Below are positions 8,214 through 46,998 of a stretch of DNA of 64,000 bases, in pieces. The DNA comes from an uncultured delta proteobacterium (GTDB lineage Bacteria; Myxococcota_A; Polyangia; Fen-1088). The translations under genes were made by a program, and so were the position numbers. The notes under the pieces are model-generated. The model did not search any database, was not told where the DNA came from, and worked only from the letters and a program-made list of their open reading frames with translations. Where the stretch lies: positions 176,457 to 240,456 of the forward strand of contig CAWCMR010000022.1 in NCBI GenBank assembly GCA_963796685.1. Direction: 5' to 3'. The first letter of the stretch is position 1, and each line of letters opens with the position of its first letter.

Positions 8214-8861
8214 TCAGAGGATCGCCACCGTGTAGGCGAACCGGACGGCTCCTATGATCCAGGTGTGCACCGCCATCTGGTTGTCCGGGATGTCCCGGCT
8301 TGCGCCGCCCGCGCTGATGCTGCCATAGCGGCCGAGCTCGAAACCGAAGTAGGGCGCAATAGTCAAGCGCGGCGAGATCTCGAATTCGCCACCCACCTTG
8401 AGCGACAGGTATTCGTATCCGTCGATGCTGCCGCTCGTGCCAGACATGCCGATCTCGAGCGATTCGTAGCCGACGCCGACGCTGCCCCACAGGGGCGTGC
8501 TGGGCAGGTAGCCCCGGCCTTCGATGCCGAGCTCGGTGCGATCGGCCGAGCAGCTCGCGCCGCTCGGGCAGTTGTCGGTGAAGCCGAAGTCGTAGCCGAA
8601 GAGCAGGCCCGCGTAGAAGGCCTGGGAAAAGCGGTAGCCCAGCCCCAACGTCAAGGGAACCAGTGCTGGTACGTAGTAAGAGATGGCGTGGTCGTTTTCA
8701 ATCCAGTTTCCCGTTGAACGAGCGACGCCGAGGGCGGCCGACACCTCGATGCCGTGATCGATCGACGTTTGCGCCGAGGCCACGGTCGAGCCAAGGGCAA
8801 CGACCGCAAAGCCGGCAACGGCAAGAACAGTTCGGGTGGCACGGACGGGCTTTTGTCGCAT
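8214..8861 (-). CDS. Secreted outer-membrane beta-barrel protein
   Basis: Signal peptide ending ASA|Q; alternating aromatic/Gly strands (LTLGLGYRF, VGVGYE, AVRFAY). Confidence 0.65.
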   Translation of the reverse strand: MRQKPVRATRTVLAVAGFAVVALGSTVASAQTSIDHGIEVSAALGVARSTGNWIENDHAISYYVPALVPLTLGLGYRFSQAFYAGLLFGYDFGFTDNCPSGASCSADRTELGIEGRGYLPSTPLWGSVGVGYESLEIGMSGTSGSIDGYEYLSLKVGGEFEISPRLTIAPYFGFELGRYGSISAGGASRDIPDNQMAVHTWIIGAVRFAYTVAIL

Positions 8862-9203
8862 GGGGGAAGCTCCGCAAGAGAGTGTTGGTGAAAGAGGTCC
8901 CATCGAGTGTAGTCCAATCCCGCAATTCACTCTAGTGGTAGCTGACGCGGGCGTCGGCGTCACCTCACCAGCTCGAGTTGGTACACAGGAGCACGATCTG
9001 GGATCGTGAGCAGCCTTCGGTTGGCAGGTCCGCCGAGAACGGGAGACCACAAGGCCAGGCTTGGTCTCCGGTGCCTTGGCCCGCAGCCGCTAGCCCTCAA
9101 ACTCTGGCGGATATCGTCACGGCCCATGGCGGTCGCTTACTGCTGCCATGGCCCCTGAAATTTTTCGCGACGGTGGGGCTTCGGCCGACCAGACTCTGCC
9201 CCG

Positions 9204-10799
9204 GTGACACCGATGAGCCAGGCAGCCCCCAACAAATGGTTGGTGACCATCTCGATTACCTTCGGGACGTTGATGGGCGCCATCGACATGTCCATCGTCA
9301 ATGTCGCGATCCCGCACATGCGCGGCGCCCTAGGGGCCTCGGTCGACGAGATCACGTGGGTCTCGACCGGCTACATCATCGCCAACGTCATCGTCATGCC
9401 CTTGGTTGCCTGGCTTGGAGGTCGCTTCGGTCGCAAGAAGGTCTACCAGTCGTGCATGCTCCTCTTCCTGGTCGGCTCGTTCTTTTGCGGTACGGCGCGA
9501 TCGCTCGGAACCTTGGTTTTCTTTCGCATCTTGCAAGGGCTCGGGGCAGGGGGGCTGCAGCCCACCGAGCAGGCCATCTTGCGTGAGACGTTTCCGCTCG
9601 AGGAGCAGGCGACGGCCATGTCCCTCTTCGGGCTGGCGGTGATGATCGGTCCCGCCATCGGGCCGACGCTGGGCGGTTGGCTCGTGGACCACCAGTCTTG
9701 GCCCTGGATCTTCTACGTCAACCTTCCCGTCGGCGCGCTTGGCCTCATCATGGTCCAGCGCTTCGTGCACGATCCCGAGTTCTTGGTGGCCGGCAAAGAG
9801 CGGGCACGTCGCGAGAAGGTCGACTATCTCGGGCTGGCGCTGCTGGCCGTTGGCCTCGGCTCGTTTCAGCTTCTACTCGAACGCGGCGACCAGCTCGATT
9901 GGTTCTCGAGCCGCGAGATTGATGCTTTGGCAGTTATCGCCGTCATCGCTCTGACCGCGTTCGTGATCCGCGAGCTCACCACGGAGCACCCGATTGTCGA
10001 CCTCTCCGTCCTCAAAGATCGTTGCTTTGCGGGTGGAACCTTCATCGGCGGTCTGCTCGGCCTGTCGCTTTTCGGCAGCTTGTTCATTTTGCCGCTCTTC
10101 TTCCAGGAGCTGCGCGGCCTCTCGGCGGAGCAATCCGGCATCGAGCTCATGCCGCGGACCCTGGTCATGATGGTTACGATGCCGATTGCGGGCCTGCTGT
10201 TCAATCGTGTCGGTGCGCGCTTGATGATCGCGGTCGGCCTGGCCATCGGGGGCTACGCGGCCTGGACCATGAAGTACTTCACGCTCGATTCCAGCCTTGG
10301 GGACATGGTCACCCCGCAGATCGTCCAAGGGATTGGATTTTCCTTGGTCTTCGTGGCCCTGTCGACCGCCACCCTGGCGAAGTTGCCCAAGTCCAAGATG
10401 AGCGCCGCCACCGGGCTCTACAATCTGGTCCGCAATCTCGGCGGCTCGGTCGGCACCGCCATCATTGCCGTCCTGTTCGAGCGCGCGCAGGGATTCGCCT
10501 ACAGCGACCTCGCAGGACACATCACGCCCGCCCAGCCCCAGGTCGCCACGCGGCTGATAGCCGTGCATTCGCTGCTTGCAAGCCGCTTCGGATTCGCCTC
10601 CTCCGGCGACAGCTTGCGCGTGCTCGACCTGGAGGTCATGCGCCAGGTGACCCTACTCGCTTTCGAGCGCGTCTTCGCCATCATCGGGCTTGTCTTCTTT
10701 GCCTCGATCCCCTTCGTCCTGTTGCTTGAAAACGTGCGCCCGCATCGCAAGGCAACCGGATCAGAAGCCGAGCCAAAGGCCCGGCCGCAGGCGGGGTGA
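9204..10799 (+). CDS. DHA2-family (EmrB/QacA) MFS efflux transporter
   Basis: DMSIVNVAIP, GRFGRKK, GPAIGPTLGG, WIFYVNLPVG motifs. Confidence 0.93.
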   Translation: MTPMSQAAPNKWLVTISITFGTLMGAIDMSIVNVAIPHMRGALGASVDEITWVSTGYIIANVIVMPLVAWLGGRFGRKKVYQSCMLLFLVGSFFCGTARSLGTLVFFRILQGLGAGGLQPTEQAILRETFPLEEQATAMSLFGLAVMIGPAIGPTLGGWLVDHQSWPWIFYVNLPVGALGLIMVQRFVHDPEFLVAGKERARREKVDYLGLALLAVGLGSFQLLLERGDQLDWFSSREIDALAVIAVIALTAFVIRELTTEHPIVDLSVLKDRCFAGGTFIGGLLGLSLFGSLFILPLFFQELRGLSAEQSGIELMPRTLVMMVTMPIAGLLFNRVGARLMIAVGLAIGGYAAWTMKYFTLDSSLGDMVTPQIVQGIGFSLVFVALSTATLAKLPKSKMSAATGLYNLVRNLGGSVGTAIIAVLFERAQGFAYSDLAGHITPAQPQVATRLIAVHSLLASRFGFASSGDSLRVLDLEVMRQVTLLAFERVFAIIGLVFFASIPFVLLLENVRPHRKATGSEAEPKARPQAG

Positions 10800-11997: not shown

Positions 11998-13130
11998 TCA
12001 CATCTGCGAAGCAACGCCCTGATTTGCCTGCCATGCCGCCACGACCGAGGCGGCGATTGCCGGGCCAAAGTCGAAGGCGCTCGCGTCCAGCCGCCGCAGC
12101 GAAATGCTGCCGACCACGCCGTCGAAGATCACGACGAAGGTGGCACTGGCAAGGGCCGGGCGCTGGAACGTGGAGCCGTTCCCGTTGCGCACCGACTTGA
12201 ACGAATAGATGGTCGACGTGGCCGCCATGGGGTCGTCGGACGAAAGCACCTCGGCGACATCGAGCTCGCCGCAGCCACCGGCACCGCCCATGCCACGGCA
12301 ATTGCAGCCGTATTGGGCCGTGCGCACCACCTGCGCCGGCAGGATCCAGTAGGCGGGTGTCACCATGCCGACCGGCATGCGCATCTTGACCGCGAAGATC
12401 TTGCTGCCGTCGGCGGATCCCTTGAATCCATGCAAACCTACGTCGCGGTAGAAGCCGCACTCGCTGCCGTCGCCGGTGCCCTGGCACAGGCTGGCGCTCA
12501 TCACGTTGACCCCGATGCCGTCGGCCAGCGATCCGGCGAACGGGGTGGGTGACTGGGCGGCCTCCTTGCCGTCGGCCGAAGCGTAGGACTGGCTGTTGCC
12601 GCCGCACACTGTCCACACCCCGCTGACACTGCCGCCGCCGAGGTTGTTCATGAAGACCAGGTTGTCGGACGAGCAGCCATTCCAATACGAGACACGCGCG
12701 TACCCGCCGACGTCGGGCGCGTAGATCGCGATGTCGTAGAGCTCGATGGGACCCGAGAAGACCATGGTCATCTCCTCGTCGAACGGAACCACGCGGCCGG
12801 ACACGGACTTGCTTGCCTTGACGCAGGCGTTGGCGTCGCTGCACGGAGGCGGCCAGGTTCCAGGAGCCATGTCGACGACGCGGTCGTAGCTGCCGGTGGC
12901 CCCGACGTTCAGAAAGGTGATCGCGTCGGTGACTTTCCAGTGGGAGGGCGCGGGCGGCGTGTCGGTCCCGAGCGGCGTATTGCCGTCCTCGCTTCGGCGT
13001 GCGCACCCACATCCGTCGTCGCAGCGGCGATTCCCGAGTCCTCTGCCGCGGCCGGCCCGCGCGACGTCGAGGAGCACCCGGGGAGCGACGCGAACAACAG
13101 CAGACTGCCAACGACGACTTGCGCGGTCAT
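11998..13130 (-). CDS. TOS1/DUF2401-DUF2403-like putative glycoside hydrolase lipoprotein (apparent frameshift near 13000)
   Basis: PFDEEMTMVFSGP, PAYWILPAQVVRTAQYGCNC, GCGELDVAEVL; lipoprotein signal (LPGC) lies in the adjacent frame from ATG 13130. Confidence 0.65.
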
Positions 13131-38857: not shown

Positions 38858-40741
38858 ATGGCCCTCGATCTCTCCCCTCAAACGCAGCAGTCCATCAACC
38901 GGGTGCGCGGGCACTATCCCAATTCGCAGGCCGCGCTGATCCCGGTGCTTCACCTCATTCAGGATGAGGCTGGTCATCTTTCCGACGAGGCGCTCGACTA
39001 CGCCTCCCGGCTGCTCGACCTGCCCCCGTCGCACGTTTTCGGCGTCGTGACGTTTTACACGATGTTTCGCCGCACCCCGCCTGCGCGCCACCGGCTGCAC
39101 GTGTGCAGCAACATCGGCTGCGTCGTGCGCGCCGGCTACGATGCCATGGAGCACGTGCACCAGCGCCTGGGCATTCGTCCGGGCCAGGCCACGCCCGACG
39201 GCACGTTCAGCCTGGACGAGGACGACGACATGATCGGGTGCGAGGGCGGCGCCTCGTTGGTGGACGGCCATGCCCGGCACCAGCACCTGACCGTCGACAA
39301 GTTGGATCGCCTGCTCGACGATTTGAGCAAGGCGCCCGCGCCCGAAGGCGCGCACCCGAACGGGTTTCCCCCCATCGATGTTCTTGGCGCCTTTCGCAGC
39401 ACCCCGGGCGAGAAGATCGTCACCAAGAACATCGGCGTGCCCGACATTCGCAAGCTCTCCACCTACCAAGCCCGCGGCGGTTGGCAGGCCTTCAAGAAAG
39501 CCCTGGGCATGCAGCGCACGGCCCTGGTGGACGAGGTCAAGGCCTCCAGTCTGCGTGGGCGCGGCGGCGCAGGCTTTCCCACCGGCATGAAGTGGGGCTT
39601 TTTGCCCAAGGACGCCAAGCAGGTGTACCTGGTGGTCAACGCCGACGAATCCGAGCCCGGCACCTTCAAGGATCGGGTCCTGCTCGTCGGCGACCCGCAC
39701 CTGCTCGTGGAGGGGATCGCCGTTTCCGCCTATGCTCTCGGTTGTACCCACGCCTATGTCTACATTCGCGGCGAATTGGCCAGCGAAGCGAAGATCCTGC
39801 AGGCGGCCATCGACGAGGTCTATGCTGCCGGCCTCTTGGGCAAGCCCCACGAGAGCGCGACGGGCGCGTTTACGCTGGACCTCACCATGCACCGGGGCGC
39901 CGGTGCCTACATCTGCGGCGAGGAAACCTCCTTGCTCAATTCGCTGGAAGGCAAGCGCGGCTGGCCGCGCATGAAGCCGCCGTTTCCGGCGGTGCGCGGG
40001 CTGTTCGGTCAGCCCACCATCGTCAACAACGTGGAAACCCTGATGAACATCCCCGATATCGTGATGCGGGGCGGGGCCGCCTTCGCCAAGCTGGGCATGG
40101 GCCGGTCGGGCGGCACGCGCGTGCTCAGCGTCTCGGGCCACGTCAACCGGCCCGGCGTCTTCGAGCTTCCCATGGGCATTCCCTTTCGCCAGCTCATCGA
40201 CGAACACTGCGGCGGCATGCTCGGTGGACGGCGCCTCAAGGGCATCATTCCGGGCGGCAGCTCGATGCCGGTGCTCGACGCCAGCGAGATCGACGTGCCC
40301 ATCGAATTCGACGCCTTGATGACCGACGCCCGCATCAAGGACGTCGAGATCAAGCCCGGCGTGCCCTTCGACATGGGCGGCGGCAAGAAGCTCAAGACCA
40401 TGGCCGGCTCGGGGGGCGTGGTGATTTTCGACGAGACCACCGACGTGGTCGCCTTCTGCGCCACCATCATGCGCTTCTACGCGCACGAATCGTGCGGCCA
40501 GTGCACGCCCTGCCGCGAGGGCACGGCTTGGCTGGCGCGCGTGTGCTCGCGCCTGGCCGAGGGCGAAGGCCGGCCGGGCGACGTCGCCCTGCTGGCCAAC
40601 ATCGCGGGCGGCGTCGCGGGCAACACCATCTGCCCGCTCGGCGAGGCCGCGGCCTGGCCCATGCTGGGCTTTCTCACCAAGTTTCGCGCCGAGTTCGAGG
40701 CCGCCGAGGCCAAGTCCAAAGCCGGGAGGACCACGCCGTGA
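38858..40741 (+). CDS. nuoEF: Fused NADH:quinone oxidoreductase subunits E and F
   Basis: NuoE (GVVTFYTMF, VCSNIGC) in frame with NuoF (LRGRGGAGF, NADESEPG, GAYICGEET, ESCGQCTPCREG, TICPLG). Confidence 0.92.
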   Translation: MALDLSPQTQQSINRVRGHYPNSQAALIPVLHLIQDEAGHLSDEALDYASRLLDLPPSHVFGVVTFYTMFRRTPPARHRLHVCSNIGCVVRAGYDAMEHVHQRLGIRPGQATPDGTFSLDEDDDMIGCEGGASLVDGHARHQHLTVDKLDRLLDDLSKAPAPEGAHPNGFPPIDVLGAFRSTPGEKIVTKNIGVPDIRKLSTYQARGGWQAFKKALGMQRTALVDEVKASSLRGRGGAGFPTGMKWGFLPKDAKQVYLVVNADESEPGTFKDRVLLVGDPHLLVEGIAVSAYALGCTHAYVYIRGELASEAKILQAAIDEVYAAGLLGKPHESATGAFTLDLTMHRGAGAYICGEETSLLNSLEGKRGWPRMKPPFPAVRGLFGQPTIVNNVETLMNIPDIVMRGGAAFAKLGMGRSGGTRVLSVSGHVNRPGVFELPMGIPFRQLIDEHCGGMLGGRRLKGIIPGGSSMPVLDASEIDVPIEFDALMTDARIKDVEIKPGVPFDMGGGKKLKTMAGSGGVVIFDETTDVVAFCATIMRFYAHESCGQCTPCREGTAWLARVCSRLAEGEGRPGDVALLANIAGGVAGNTICPLGEAAAWPMLGFLTKFRAEFEAAEAKSKAGRTTP

Positions 40742-41614: not shown

Positions 41615-43834
41615 ATGTTCTCGCATCTGCACATGATTCCGCTCTTGCCGCTCCTCGGCGCGGCGTACCTGATTCTGTTCGGCCGGCGCCACTCGCGCGC
41701 GGTCGTGCAGACCATCGCCAGCCTGGCCGTGTTCGCCTCGTTCGTGGTTTCGGCCGACGCCTTCTTCTCGGGGTTGCCCGCCTCGGTCCACCAGGGCGGC
41801 CTCTCGGAGACGGTCTACAACTGGTTCTCCGCCGGCAGTGTCGACGTCGATCTGTCGCTGCGCATGGACCCGCTGTCGGGGCTTCTTTGCCTGGTGGTGA
41901 CCTTCATCGGATCCCTCATCCACGTCTACTCCGCCGGCTACATGGCCCACGACGAGGACTACCCGCGCTTCTTCGCCTATCTCAACCTCTTCTGCGGCGC
42001 CATGCTGATGCTGGTGCTGGGCGACAGCCTTCCCGTGGTGTTCATCGGGTGGGAAGGCGTGGGCCTGTCGAGCTACCTGCTCATCGGCTTTTGGTACAAG
42101 GAGAACGCCAACGCCAGCGCGGGCAAGAAGGCCTTCATCGTCAATCGCATCGGCGATTTCGGGTTCCTGATCGGGATGTTCCTGCTCTTCCGTGCCACGG
42201 GCACGCTCGACATCCCCGCGATTCTGGGCTCGGCCCACCCGGGCAGCGCGCTTGCGGCGCCGCTCTGGCTGGGGCAGTCGGTCGCCTTCTGGGCGGGCGT
42301 CTTTCTCTTCCTGGGCGCTGCGGGCAAGTCGGCGCAGATCCCGCTTTACGTTTGGCTGCCTGACGCCATGGCCGGTCCCACGCCGGTGTCGGCGCTGATT
42401 CACGCCGCGACCATGGTCACCGCCGGCGTGTACCTGGTGGCGCGCATGTCCGCGGTCTACATGCTGGCCCCGGCCGCCCTGGCCATCGTCGCCGTGGTGG
42501 GCGCGTTGACCGCCATGTTCGCCGCCATCATCGGCTTCGCCCAGAACGACTTCAAGAAGGTGCTGGCCTATTCCACCATCAGCCAGCTCGGCTTCATGTT
42601 CGTGGGCGTGGGCACCGGCAACTTCGCCGCCGGCATCTTCCATCTTTTCACGCACGCCTTCTTCAAGGCCGGGTTGTTCCTGTGCGCCGGCTCGGTCATG
42701 CACGCCATGAGCGGCTCGGGCGACATCACCAAGATGGGGGGCCTGGGCAAGAAGCTGCCGTGGACCGCACGGACGTTCCAGATCTTCTGGCTTGCCATCT
42801 GCGGTGTCCCGATCTTTTCGGGCTTCTTCTCGAAGGACGCCCTGGTCGACGGAGCCTTCGCGACCGAGGTCTATGGCCACGGCCTGGCGTGGGTGGGGCC
42901 GTTCGTCGGGGTCGCGCTTCTGGCCGCCGCGTTCGGCACGGCCTTCTATATGTCGCGCCTCTACTTCCTGGTCTTCACCGGTCCTTGCCGCGCCGACGAG
43001 GACGTCCAGCACCACATCCACGAGTCGCCCATTTCCATGGTGTTCCCTCTGGTGGTGCTGGCCGCGGGCGCGCTGCTCGGCGGCCTCGTCGGCGTGCCAC
43101 CCGCCATCCGCGAGCTCTTCGGCAAGCATGGCGAAAGCACGCTTGCGGTGTGGCTCGAGCCCGCCGTCGGCGCGCCCCTGGAGGTGGCCAGTCGCACCGA
43201 GTGGATGGCCATGGGCTTCTCGACCGCAATCGCCCTGGCGGGCATCGGTCTCGGCTATGCGTTCTTCGGGGGTGGGTACCGCGCGCCGGCGCGCGCTTTT
43301 GCACGGAGGTTCCCCGGCCTTGTGTCCCTGGTGCGCGACAAGTTTCGCATCGACGAGCTGTACGGGTTCCTCATCATCCGCCCCGTGCAGGCTATCTGCC
43401 GCCTGGTGTTCCAGGTCGTGGACCGCATCCTCATCGACAAGATTCTGATTGGCGGCTGGGCCTTTCTGACCGACATGGCCGGCCGTGTGCTTCGTTTCTT
43501 CCAGGCCGGCGACGTCCAGCGCTACCTGGCGGTGTTCGCCATCGGGCTTTCGGTCATGGTGTGGATGGCCGCCCGACCGGCCGCACCCGACGAGGTCCGG
43601 CTCTTGGTCGAGGGCAACACCGTGGCGGTCAGCCTGGTCGATCCCGAAGCCGCCGGTGGCGATCTGACCTACAGCTTCGATTTCGACGGCGACGGAATCG
43701 CCGATCGCCAGGGCAAGAGCCCGAGCGCAACCTGGACCTTCAGCGGCCCCGGCCGCTACACGATCCGTATCGTCATCGAGGATTCGCGCTGGCACACCCG
43801 GCGGACCATCAAACGGGACACCGAAATCCGATAA
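41615..43834 (+). CDS. nuoL: NADH:quinone oxidoreductase subunit L with C-terminal PKD-like domain
   Basis: GKSAQIPLYVWLPDAMAGPTPVSALIHAATMV, HAFFKA; extra tail TYSFDFDGDG..TFSGPGRYTI. Confidence 0.93.
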   Translation: MFSHLHMIPLLPLLGAAYLILFGRRHSRAVVQTIASLAVFASFVVSADAFFSGLPASVHQGGLSETVYNWFSAGSVDVDLSLRMDPLSGLLCLVVTFIGSLIHVYSAGYMAHDEDYPRFFAYLNLFCGAMLMLVLGDSLPVVFIGWEGVGLSSYLLIGFWYKENANASAGKKAFIVNRIGDFGFLIGMFLLFRATGTLDIPAILGSAHPGSALAAPLWLGQSVAFWAGVFLFLGAAGKSAQIPLYVWLPDAMAGPTPVSALIHAATMVTAGVYLVARMSAVYMLAPAALAIVAVVGALTAMFAAIIGFAQNDFKKVLAYSTISQLGFMFVGVGTGNFAAGIFHLFTHAFFKAGLFLCAGSVMHAMSGSGDITKMGGLGKKLPWTARTFQIFWLAICGVPIFSGFFSKDALVDGAFATEVYGHGLAWVGPFVGVALLAAAFGTAFYMSRLYFLVFTGPCRADEDVQHHIHESPISMVFPLVVLAAGALLGGLVGVPPAIRELFGKHGESTLAVWLEPAVGAPLEVASRTEWMAMGFSTAIALAGIGLGYAFFGGGYRAPARAFARRFPGLVSLVRDKFRIDELYGFLIIRPVQAICRLVFQVVDRILIDKILIGGWAFLTDMAGRVLRFFQAGDVQRYLAVFAIGLSVMVWMAARPAAPDEVRLLVEGNTVAVSLVDPEAAGGDLTYSFDFDGDGIADRQGKSPSATWTFSGPGRYTIRIVIEDSRWHTRRTIKRDTEIR

Positions 43835-45492: not shown

Positions 45493-45496
<4 letters not shown>
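43850..45496 (+). CDS. nuoM: NADH:quinone oxidoreductase subunit M
   Basis: IKVPLFPLHTWLPDAHVEAPT, AYSSVSHLG. Confidence 0.95.

Positions 45497-46998
<1,502 letters not shown>

Follow-up and report, generated by a model that had tools for sequence, protein, structure and literature searches.

A PKD-type domain behind the last transmembrane helix of NuoL in the Polyangia

Bacterial complex I is usually seen as a minimal core of 14 subunits, and extra mass on the enzyme as a mitochondrial (and alphaproteobacterial) development. The canonical NuoL/Nqo12 proteins of Escherichia coli and Thermus thermophilus (3rko, 4he8) consist of a core, a lateral helix and a last transmembrane helix (TM16), are encoded beside nuoJ, nuoK, nuoM and nuoN, and end within a few residues of TM16. 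In complex I the amphipathic helix lies on the N-side, from where TMH16 crosses back; removing TMH16 from E. coli NuoL deletes only the last 24 residues, and the truncated NuoL leaves little complex, which is fragile (PMC3274701). Here we describe nuoL in a window of 64,000 nucleotides (nt) from an uncultured delta proteobacterium (GTDB lineage Myxococcota_A; Polyangia; Fen-1088), namely positions 176,457 to 240,456 of contig CAWCMR010000022.1, assembly GCA_963796685.1. Its product shares the core, lateral helix, TM16 and J/K/M/N neighbours of the canonical proteins, and differs from them in continuing behind TM16 with 88 residues that carry a PKD domain, predicted to be periplasmic.

Two further groups of complex I enzymes offer a comparison. 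In Paracoccus denitrificans the antiporter-like subunits also bear extra periplasmic elements, and the ND2 and ND4 hairpins are said to stabilise the arm where the mammalian subunits NDUFA8 and NDUFS5 are lacking; in contrast to the tail described here, the extras of the P. denitrificans enzyme are hairpins formed by loops and, between TMH14 and TMH15 of ND5/Nqo12, a loop insertion that is flexible and in part disordered (PMC11522691), with no folded domain after TM16. Mitochondrial NDUFA11 (near ND5-TMH16), NDUFA8 and NDUFS5 (intermembrane-space face) are added mass that holds the anchor and the P-side face, and the tail may work alike. These, however, are separate eukaryotic polypeptides of unrelated folds, and no homology to them is claimed.

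A PKD domain in frame with NuoL

The nuoL product is a genuine NuoL. It scored 685.9 bits against the NuoL equivalog NF005141 (cut-off 556; residues 4-651) and 659.2 bits against TIGR01974 (cut-off 407.5; residues 6-651), and its core carries the Pfam domains Proton_antipo_N and Proton_antipo_M. The closest solved chain is T. thermophilus Nqo12 (phmmer, E 4.5e-130), in an alignment of query residues 10-648 that starts at residue 8 of the 606-residue chain and ends with query residue 648 opposite its residue 600. The stretches GWEGVGL, GKSAQIPL and THAFFKA are identical or nearly so between the two proteins, and probably contain the proton-path residues (TM5 Glu, TM7 Lys and TM12 Lys). Scores above both equivalog cut-offs are thus combined with an antiporter core, a lateral helix, TM16 and an operon context of nuoJ, nuoK, nuoM and nuoN.

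Past the normal NuoL end the frame runs on for 88 residues (652-739; about nt 43568-43831). This extension was first noticed by a model that read the letters alone (the original prediction), which saw a PKD signature behind the last transmembrane helix at 43570-43834; both the signature and the positions agree with our result, and the letters that it quoted, DLTYSFDFDGDG...SATWTFSGPGRYTIRIVIED, were found at residues 683-723. The PKD label was borne out by hidden Markov model searches. Taken alone, the tail matched PF00801 (PKD) with 34.4 bits (E 2.2e-8, cut-off 23.5), well above what chance would give, and within the whole protein the same model scored 31.0 bits; the match to PF18911 (PKD_4), at 24.1 bits, was under the cut-off of 27.

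A structure of residues 615-739 (a 125-residue piece) was predicted with AlphaFold2 (AF2) from an alignment of 24 rows (A1). The model has a mean predicted local distance difference test score (pLDDT) of 80.5. It begins with two helices, the end of the lateral helix (piece residues 2-16) and TM16 (20-39), and continues with seven strands, the blocks of the domain having pLDDT values of 79-91. In a Foldseek search of the PDB the top three chains were PKD1 domains, one of Epp from Vibrio anguillarum (6aem) and two of PrtV from V. cholerae (4l9d), with E values of 2.5e-5 to 1.1e-4, template-modelling scores, TM(target), of 0.70-0.72 and 23-24% identity; glycan-binding proteins appeared further down, at E about 1e-3. 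The beta-sandwich expected in the original prediction is therefore what the model shows. With these Vibrio domains and the PKD-like domain of clostridial collagenase the tail shares a WDFGDG-type loop; whereas they belong to secreted, soluble, multi-domain enzymes, the tail is a single domain on a membrane subunit and carries an R-[W/F]-x-T loop.

A search of representative proteins with the A1 profile of the tail gave 30,372 matches at E<=0.001. The best 150 of these were nearly all giant multi-PKD proteins, and one was a 261-residue fragment that aligned from the TM16 region on. This search confirms that the tail is a PKD domain and is uninformative on NuoL fusions elsewhere.

The PKD consensus is a WDFGDG-type loop followed by strands with G-x-Y and V-x-D. 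Among the 24 tails of the family to which the window's genome belongs (A1), D689, F690 and D691 are invariant, D693 and G694 are at least 90% conserved, and P655 of the linker is nearly invariant. When 20 Pfam-positive tails from other families were added (44 in total), D689 was present in 43 and D693 in 42, the positions of FDFDGDG were kept in 39-43, G713-x-Y715 in 32 and D723 in 39. Just behind this last aspartate lies a loop specific to the clade: position 726 is tryptophan in 35 tails and phenylalanine in eight, hence aromatic in 43 of 44, and is flanked by R725 (32 of 44) and T728 (35 of 44). To our knowledge, the general PKD consensus has no aromatic residue at the position of W726. A score above the gathering cut-off, a seven-strand sandwich that superposes on solved PKD domains, and the signature loop and strands identify the tail as a PKD-type beta-sandwich of about 80 residues.

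Conservation of the fusion in the Polyangia and its absence from other Myxococcota classes sampled

A word-indexed search with the tail returned 43 proteins, of which 42 were NuoL (41 of 733-743 residues and one partial sequence of 591), with identities in the tail down to 57%; the 43rd was an unrelated PKD-repeat protein of 1,133 residues. PKD was among the precomputed Pfam domains of 12 of the 42 NuoL clusters, and where a name was given it was 'NADH-quinone oxidoreductase subunit L'. Residues 600-739 found one Myxococcota cluster in a protein atlas search, at 0.84, which is under the useful range. Within the family, 23 of 24 genomes encode the tail, the sole miss being a genome that is 74% complete, and 19 of 20 loci retain the gene order nuoJ-K-L-M-N. 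We also scanned public metagenome-assembled genomes (MAGs), one per species, giving 66 loci in MAGs labelled Polyangia, Myxococcales, Myxococcota or 'delta proteobacterium'. In 61 of them the tail is complete and continues the reading frame of TM16. The remaining five comprise a masked stretch in the tail (L080), a frame break (L088, where the PKD frame is left about 25 residues into the tail by a frameshift or sequencing error), a contig end (L092) and two proteins that end directly after TM16.

The ratio of nonsynonymous to synonymous substitution rates (dN/dS) was calculated against three close relatives: the tail gave 0.10, 0.18 and 0.18, the NuoL body 0.095, 0.13 and 0.13. Purifying selection acts on the tail, which is a selected part of NuoL. 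The genome is a draft of 26 contigs (88.6% complete, 6.48% contamination), and it could be supposed that nuoL and an unrelated PKD gene had been joined by loss of a stop codon, by mis-assembly or in a chimeric contig, a doubt that the original prediction had itself raised. We consider this practically excluded: a fusion of the same length recurs in the 61 independent public loci and the 42 protein clusters, selection acts on the tail, and nuoM begins 16 nt after the nuoL stop. The dN/dS values and the presence of the tail in relatives argue in particular that no stop was lost.

Some sequences were set aside. Three genomes of genus g3 (G014, G240 and G310) have an apparent 'short NuoL with tail' of 421-481 residues; these lengths are distrusted, and G014 contains masked stretches and was left out of the alignments. 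L159 and L166 (partial NuoN), L161 (short NuoK) and L170 were left out of the partner alignments A2-A4, used below.

To follow the tail through the class, 401 Polyangia genomes, a tally that includes two unpublished ones (G339 and G369, used for no other result here), were searched with residues 560-739. Matches at E<=1e-5 were obtained in 307, and many of those outside the family extend to the end of the query. We then took 39 NuoL C-termini from 22 other Polyangia families, a hand-picked, non-random set of 20 strong matches, 14 that stopped early and five from near-complete genomes. All 39 proceed for at least 84 residues past TM16. PKD or PKD_4 was recognised at E<=0.01 in 20 of these tails, and 16 of the 20 exceed a cut-off; Pfam finds nothing in the remaining 19, many of which by eye contain a stretch like W-D-[FL]-D-G-D-G. 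What could have been a single oddity of one genome is thus a trait of the whole class. Few or no matches to the query were found in four families: f13 (0 of 14 genomes), f2 (3 of 21), f23 (0 of 3) and f27 (0 of 1).

The tails vary in kind. In family f11 (L131 and L132, from genomes G034 and G187 of 9.6 and 15 Mb) they are 93 and 99 residues long, proline-rich and of low complexity, with no PKD match, and may be degenerated or replaced tails. In family f19 (L134, genome G282) the tail exceeds 341 residues, with a cysteine-rich stretch between a Y-R-Y-D-L-D-G-D-G loop and a final V-E-V-R-N-A-F-G strand. Family f33 (L135, genome G401) has a tail of 203 residues that is 95% identical to that of a 951-residue NuoL in NCBI named Sandaracinus amylolyticus, a species placed in the Polyangia by the NCBI taxonomy. 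In an AF2 model of this 951-residue protein TM16 spans residues 730-749, and the tail is all-beta from 755 to 936 (block pLDDT 71-90). The expanded f19 and f33 tails look like PKD domains with large inserted modules.

Other Myxococcota classes were represented by 58 genomes, each at least 90% complete. The query matched in 45, of which 44 gave a match of NuoL type. Each of these broke off between residues 84 and 117 of the 180-residue query, in several cases with a stop codon there; separate PKD-only matches lay away from nuoL, mostly in large open reading frames (ORFs; 806-3,197 residues, and one of 226). None of the 20 NuoLs fetched from these classes has a tail. They end 2-11 residues past TM16, which, together with the terminal position of TMH16 in E. 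coli (PMC3274701), upholds the premise of the original prediction that NuoL normally stops just after this helix. The genome under study itself encodes a second NuoL, 48-50% identical, in one uninterrupted cluster, D-H-J-L-M-N (at about 716.9-725.9 kb of contig C8; L002 and L003), and this protein has no tail and ends at TM16. One complex I lineage in the Polyangia thus bears the tail as a trait of the class, and the other Myxococcota classes sampled lack it.

Position of the domain and its possible role

Residues after TM16 are periplasmic (P side) by homology to solved complex I, and on the same grounds, in line with the original prediction, the PKD tail is predicted to lie on the membrane's periplasmic side. 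The AF2 model leaves about six residues (RPAAPD) between TM16 and the first strand, a linker that would hold the domain at the membrane surface near NuoN, NuoJ and NuoK. In bacteria, ND6-TMH4 is described as directed towards ND5-TMH16 (PMC11522691), and the mammalian ND5-TMH16 lies on an exposed side of the arm beside NDUFA11 (bioRxiv 10.1101/2022.02.11.480065). We modelled NuoN, NuoJ and NuoK (alignments A2-A4) as a complex with the 125-residue piece (A1), TM16 included. The model scored 0.78, whereas the best of three controls scored 0.00; among reference cases, 116 of 157 solved complexes attain this mark of 0.78, as do 2 of 215 mismatched pairs. The runs agreed in at least 94% of contacts, with a partner pLDDT of at least 72. 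Confident partner contacts join piece residues 5-42 (helix end and TM16) to NuoN 158-230, NuoJ 94-121 and NuoK 18-30 and 91-98. Within the PKD domain, confident contacts are predicted for piece residues 64 and 111-113, the latter being R725-W726-H727.

With moderate confidence, we favour the reading that the tail is an accessory domain, built into NuoL on the periplasmic side, whose role is to cap the lateral helix at its TM16 anchor and which uses its R-[W/F] loop for docking. With TM16 as the anchor of the lateral helix and a linker of about six residues, the domain most likely rests against the proximal membrane arm at its periplasmic face, lying flat over NuoN, NuoJ and NuoK. In such an arrangement the lateral helix would clamp the arm on the cytoplasmic side, TM16 would span the membrane, and the PKD domain, attached by the conserved R-[W/F] loop, would form the head of the rivet. 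We infer that it would thereby keep the TM16 anchor seated and stabilise the arm, a job that in other complex I enzymes falls to supernumerary subunits and to hairpins in the periplasm.

Several observations weigh against a docked cap. Only four residues of the PKD domain are in confident contact with the arm, and the score of the complex model comes mostly from the helix end and TM16 (residues 5-42). This part resembles solved complex I, so the score may stem from that likeness; with TM16 in the modelled piece, docking of the PKD domain is inseparable from the textbook contact of TM16. The model was read as contacts, which fix no orientation of the domain. Tail length and sequence vary widely across the class (proline-rich in f11, more than 341 residues in f19, no Pfam match in 19 of 39), which suits an outward-facing or partner-binding surface, where precise docking would predict less variation. 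Finally, the other Myxococcota classes and the genome's own second complex do without a tail.

Contacts between proteins are often made by PKD domains and other Ig-like folds, and NDUFA11, next to the mammalian anchor, faces complex III in respirasomes. A second reading, which we hold to be possible and clearly less probable than the cap, is that the domain is a docking site for another protein, either a supercomplex partner (a quinol oxidising complex or an oxidase) or a periplasmic regulator or user of complex I. The variation in tail length and the beta modules inserted in the Sandaracinus-type and f19 tails would fit a co-evolving outward surface, no more than four PKD residues touch the arm in the model, and the exposed position of mammalian ND5-TMH16 beside NDUFA11 (bioRxiv 10.1101/2022.02.11.480065) points the same way. 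However, no candidate partner was identified, and among the clade-specific residues the one with the highest conservation is predicted to point at the arm rather than into solvent. In its fullest form, which we put forward tentatively, this reading would make the enzyme the first complex I found in bacteria whose core includes a subunit with its own folded 'supernumerary' domain, built in on the periplasmic side. The domain would be the contact to a partner, its expansion from family to family would track changes of that partner, and it would be an independent counterpart of NDUFA11 and the intermembrane-space subunits.

TM16 stands alone, far from the NuoL core, and its loss makes the E. coli complex fragile (PMC3274701), so a folded periplasmic domain might merely fix the topology of a weakly hydrophobic last helix during biogenesis and have no role afterwards. 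Any folded or bulky tail would serve for this, whether PKD or proline-rich, which fits the variation; but the R-[W/F]-x-T loop conserved across the class would be left unexplained and other bacteria insert TM16 without such a tail, and we regard this account as improbable. Still less credible is a tether to the wall or outer envelope, or glycan binding. The original prediction had called the tail an adhesion-type domain that might hold complex I to the wall or a partner: the PKD fold stands, while 'adhesion-type' is a name for the fold rather than for a function. PKD domains do occur in many surface and carbohydrate-active proteins, and glycan-binding proteins are in the Foldseek list; their matches are, however, weaker than those to the PKD1 protease domains. 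A six-residue linker and a single domain of about 80 residues, held at the membrane surface, have a short reach from the inner membrane, and peptidoglycan lies many nanometres away.

The gene cluster and the meaning of the tail

The features of nuoL and its cluster are collected in Table 1. The order in the window is nuoEF-J-K-L(PKD)-M-N, with a CrcB-like gene upstream and a GDSL-family gene downstream, and nuoG is absent from the cluster. The GTG start of nuoJ stands behind GGGAGGA and overlaps the nuoEF stop (GTGA). The partner half of the enzyme is on contig C13 (L096, 3058-8488), with nuoA, nuoB, nuoC, nuoD, a short nuoG (524 residues) and nuoH; nuoI was not found among the ORFs scanned on that contig (L096 8583-9308 had no match, and 8825-10675 is PETase-like). 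The PKD-bearing NuoL belongs to a complex I of the 14-subunit type whose genes are split over two loci.

Table 1. Coordinates of nuoL, its parts and the neighbouring nuo genes in the window
Feature	Position	Strand	Description or basis
nuoL	41615..43834	+	739 aa and a stop codon; a single frame from the NuoL core through lateral helix and TM16 to the PKD tail; NF005141, Pfam
NuoL proper, residues 1-651, with amphipathic lateral helix	41615..43567	+	Ends of NuoL profiles; Nqo12 alignment
TM16 anchor helix, residues 634-653	43514..43573	+	AF2 model of the 125-aa piece, helix 20-39
Linker RPAAPD, residues 654-659	43574..43591	+	AF2 model of the piece, stretch from helix 20-39 to strand 46-52
PKD beta-sandwich, residues 660-739	43592..43831	+	Seven strands over 660-738; PF00801, AF2, Foldseek
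FDFDGDG, PKD signature loop, residues 688-694	43676..43696	+	Conservation in tail alignments
R725-W726-H727 loop after strand F; clade-specific D-x-R-[WF]-x-T	43787..43795	+	Conservation; contacts in the complex model
Fused nuoE-nuoF, 627 aa, first gene of the cluster	38858..40741	+	Pfam 2Fe-2S_thioredx, Complex1_51K, SLBB and NADH_4Fe-4S in one ORF
nuoJ, 191 aa	40738..41313	+	Pfam Oxidored_q3, E 2.1e-32
nuoK, 99 aa	41313..41612	+	Pfam Oxidored_q2, E 1.7e-22
nuoM, 548 aa	43850..45496	+	Pfam Proton_antipo_M, E 3.3e-75
nuoN, 501 aa (GTG 45493) or 481 aa (ATG 45553)	45493..46998	+	Pfam Proton_antipo_M, E 2.1e-63

The whole genome contains five matches to Complex1_51K. Clusters of NuoD-, NuoH- and antiporter-like genes, hydrogenase- or Mrp-like, also occur on C11 (about 87.8-94.4 kb) and C14 (about 137.4-143.7 kb). 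At the nuoM/nuoN junction a 12-nt tandem repeat (45494-45555; 5.2 copies, 76% matches) was observed. If nuoN begins at GTG 45493, which stands behind AGGAGG and overlaps the nuoM stop, the repeat would encode a reiterated (A/V)-(T/M/K)-G-A N-terminus; with the start at ATG 45553 it would be intergenic. Elsewhere in the window, an ORF on the minus strand (11998-13077) matches both halves of the Tos1/YJL171C family (C-terminal E 1.1e-46, N-terminal E 1.7e-15), a cell wall protein according to Pfam and notable for a myxobacterium. The family is mainly fungal.

In the literature searched, mostly outside the subscription journals, no description of a NuoL-PKD fusion was found, as the original prediction had supposed. 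The novel element is that the two parts occur together: a core membrane subunit whose TM16 is followed, in the same chain, by a folded Ig-like domain. The sequences are public and some carry an automatic PKD label, so the novelty is recognition of the feature rather than new data; in the sources checked the tail-bearing proteins are named merely 'NADH-quinone oxidoreductase subunit L', a point for annotation.

A whole class of soil and sediment bacteria thus has a folded periplasmic domain fused to the anchor of the lateral 'coupling rod' of NuoL. The name of a cultured species, Sandaracinus amylolyticus, on a 951-residue NuoL of this kind makes its role testable. If the domain clamps the anchor, the Polyangia would provide a natural experiment on what TM16 contributes to the stability and coupling of complex I; if it binds a partner, it would be a pointer to a new respiratory supercomplex or regulator.

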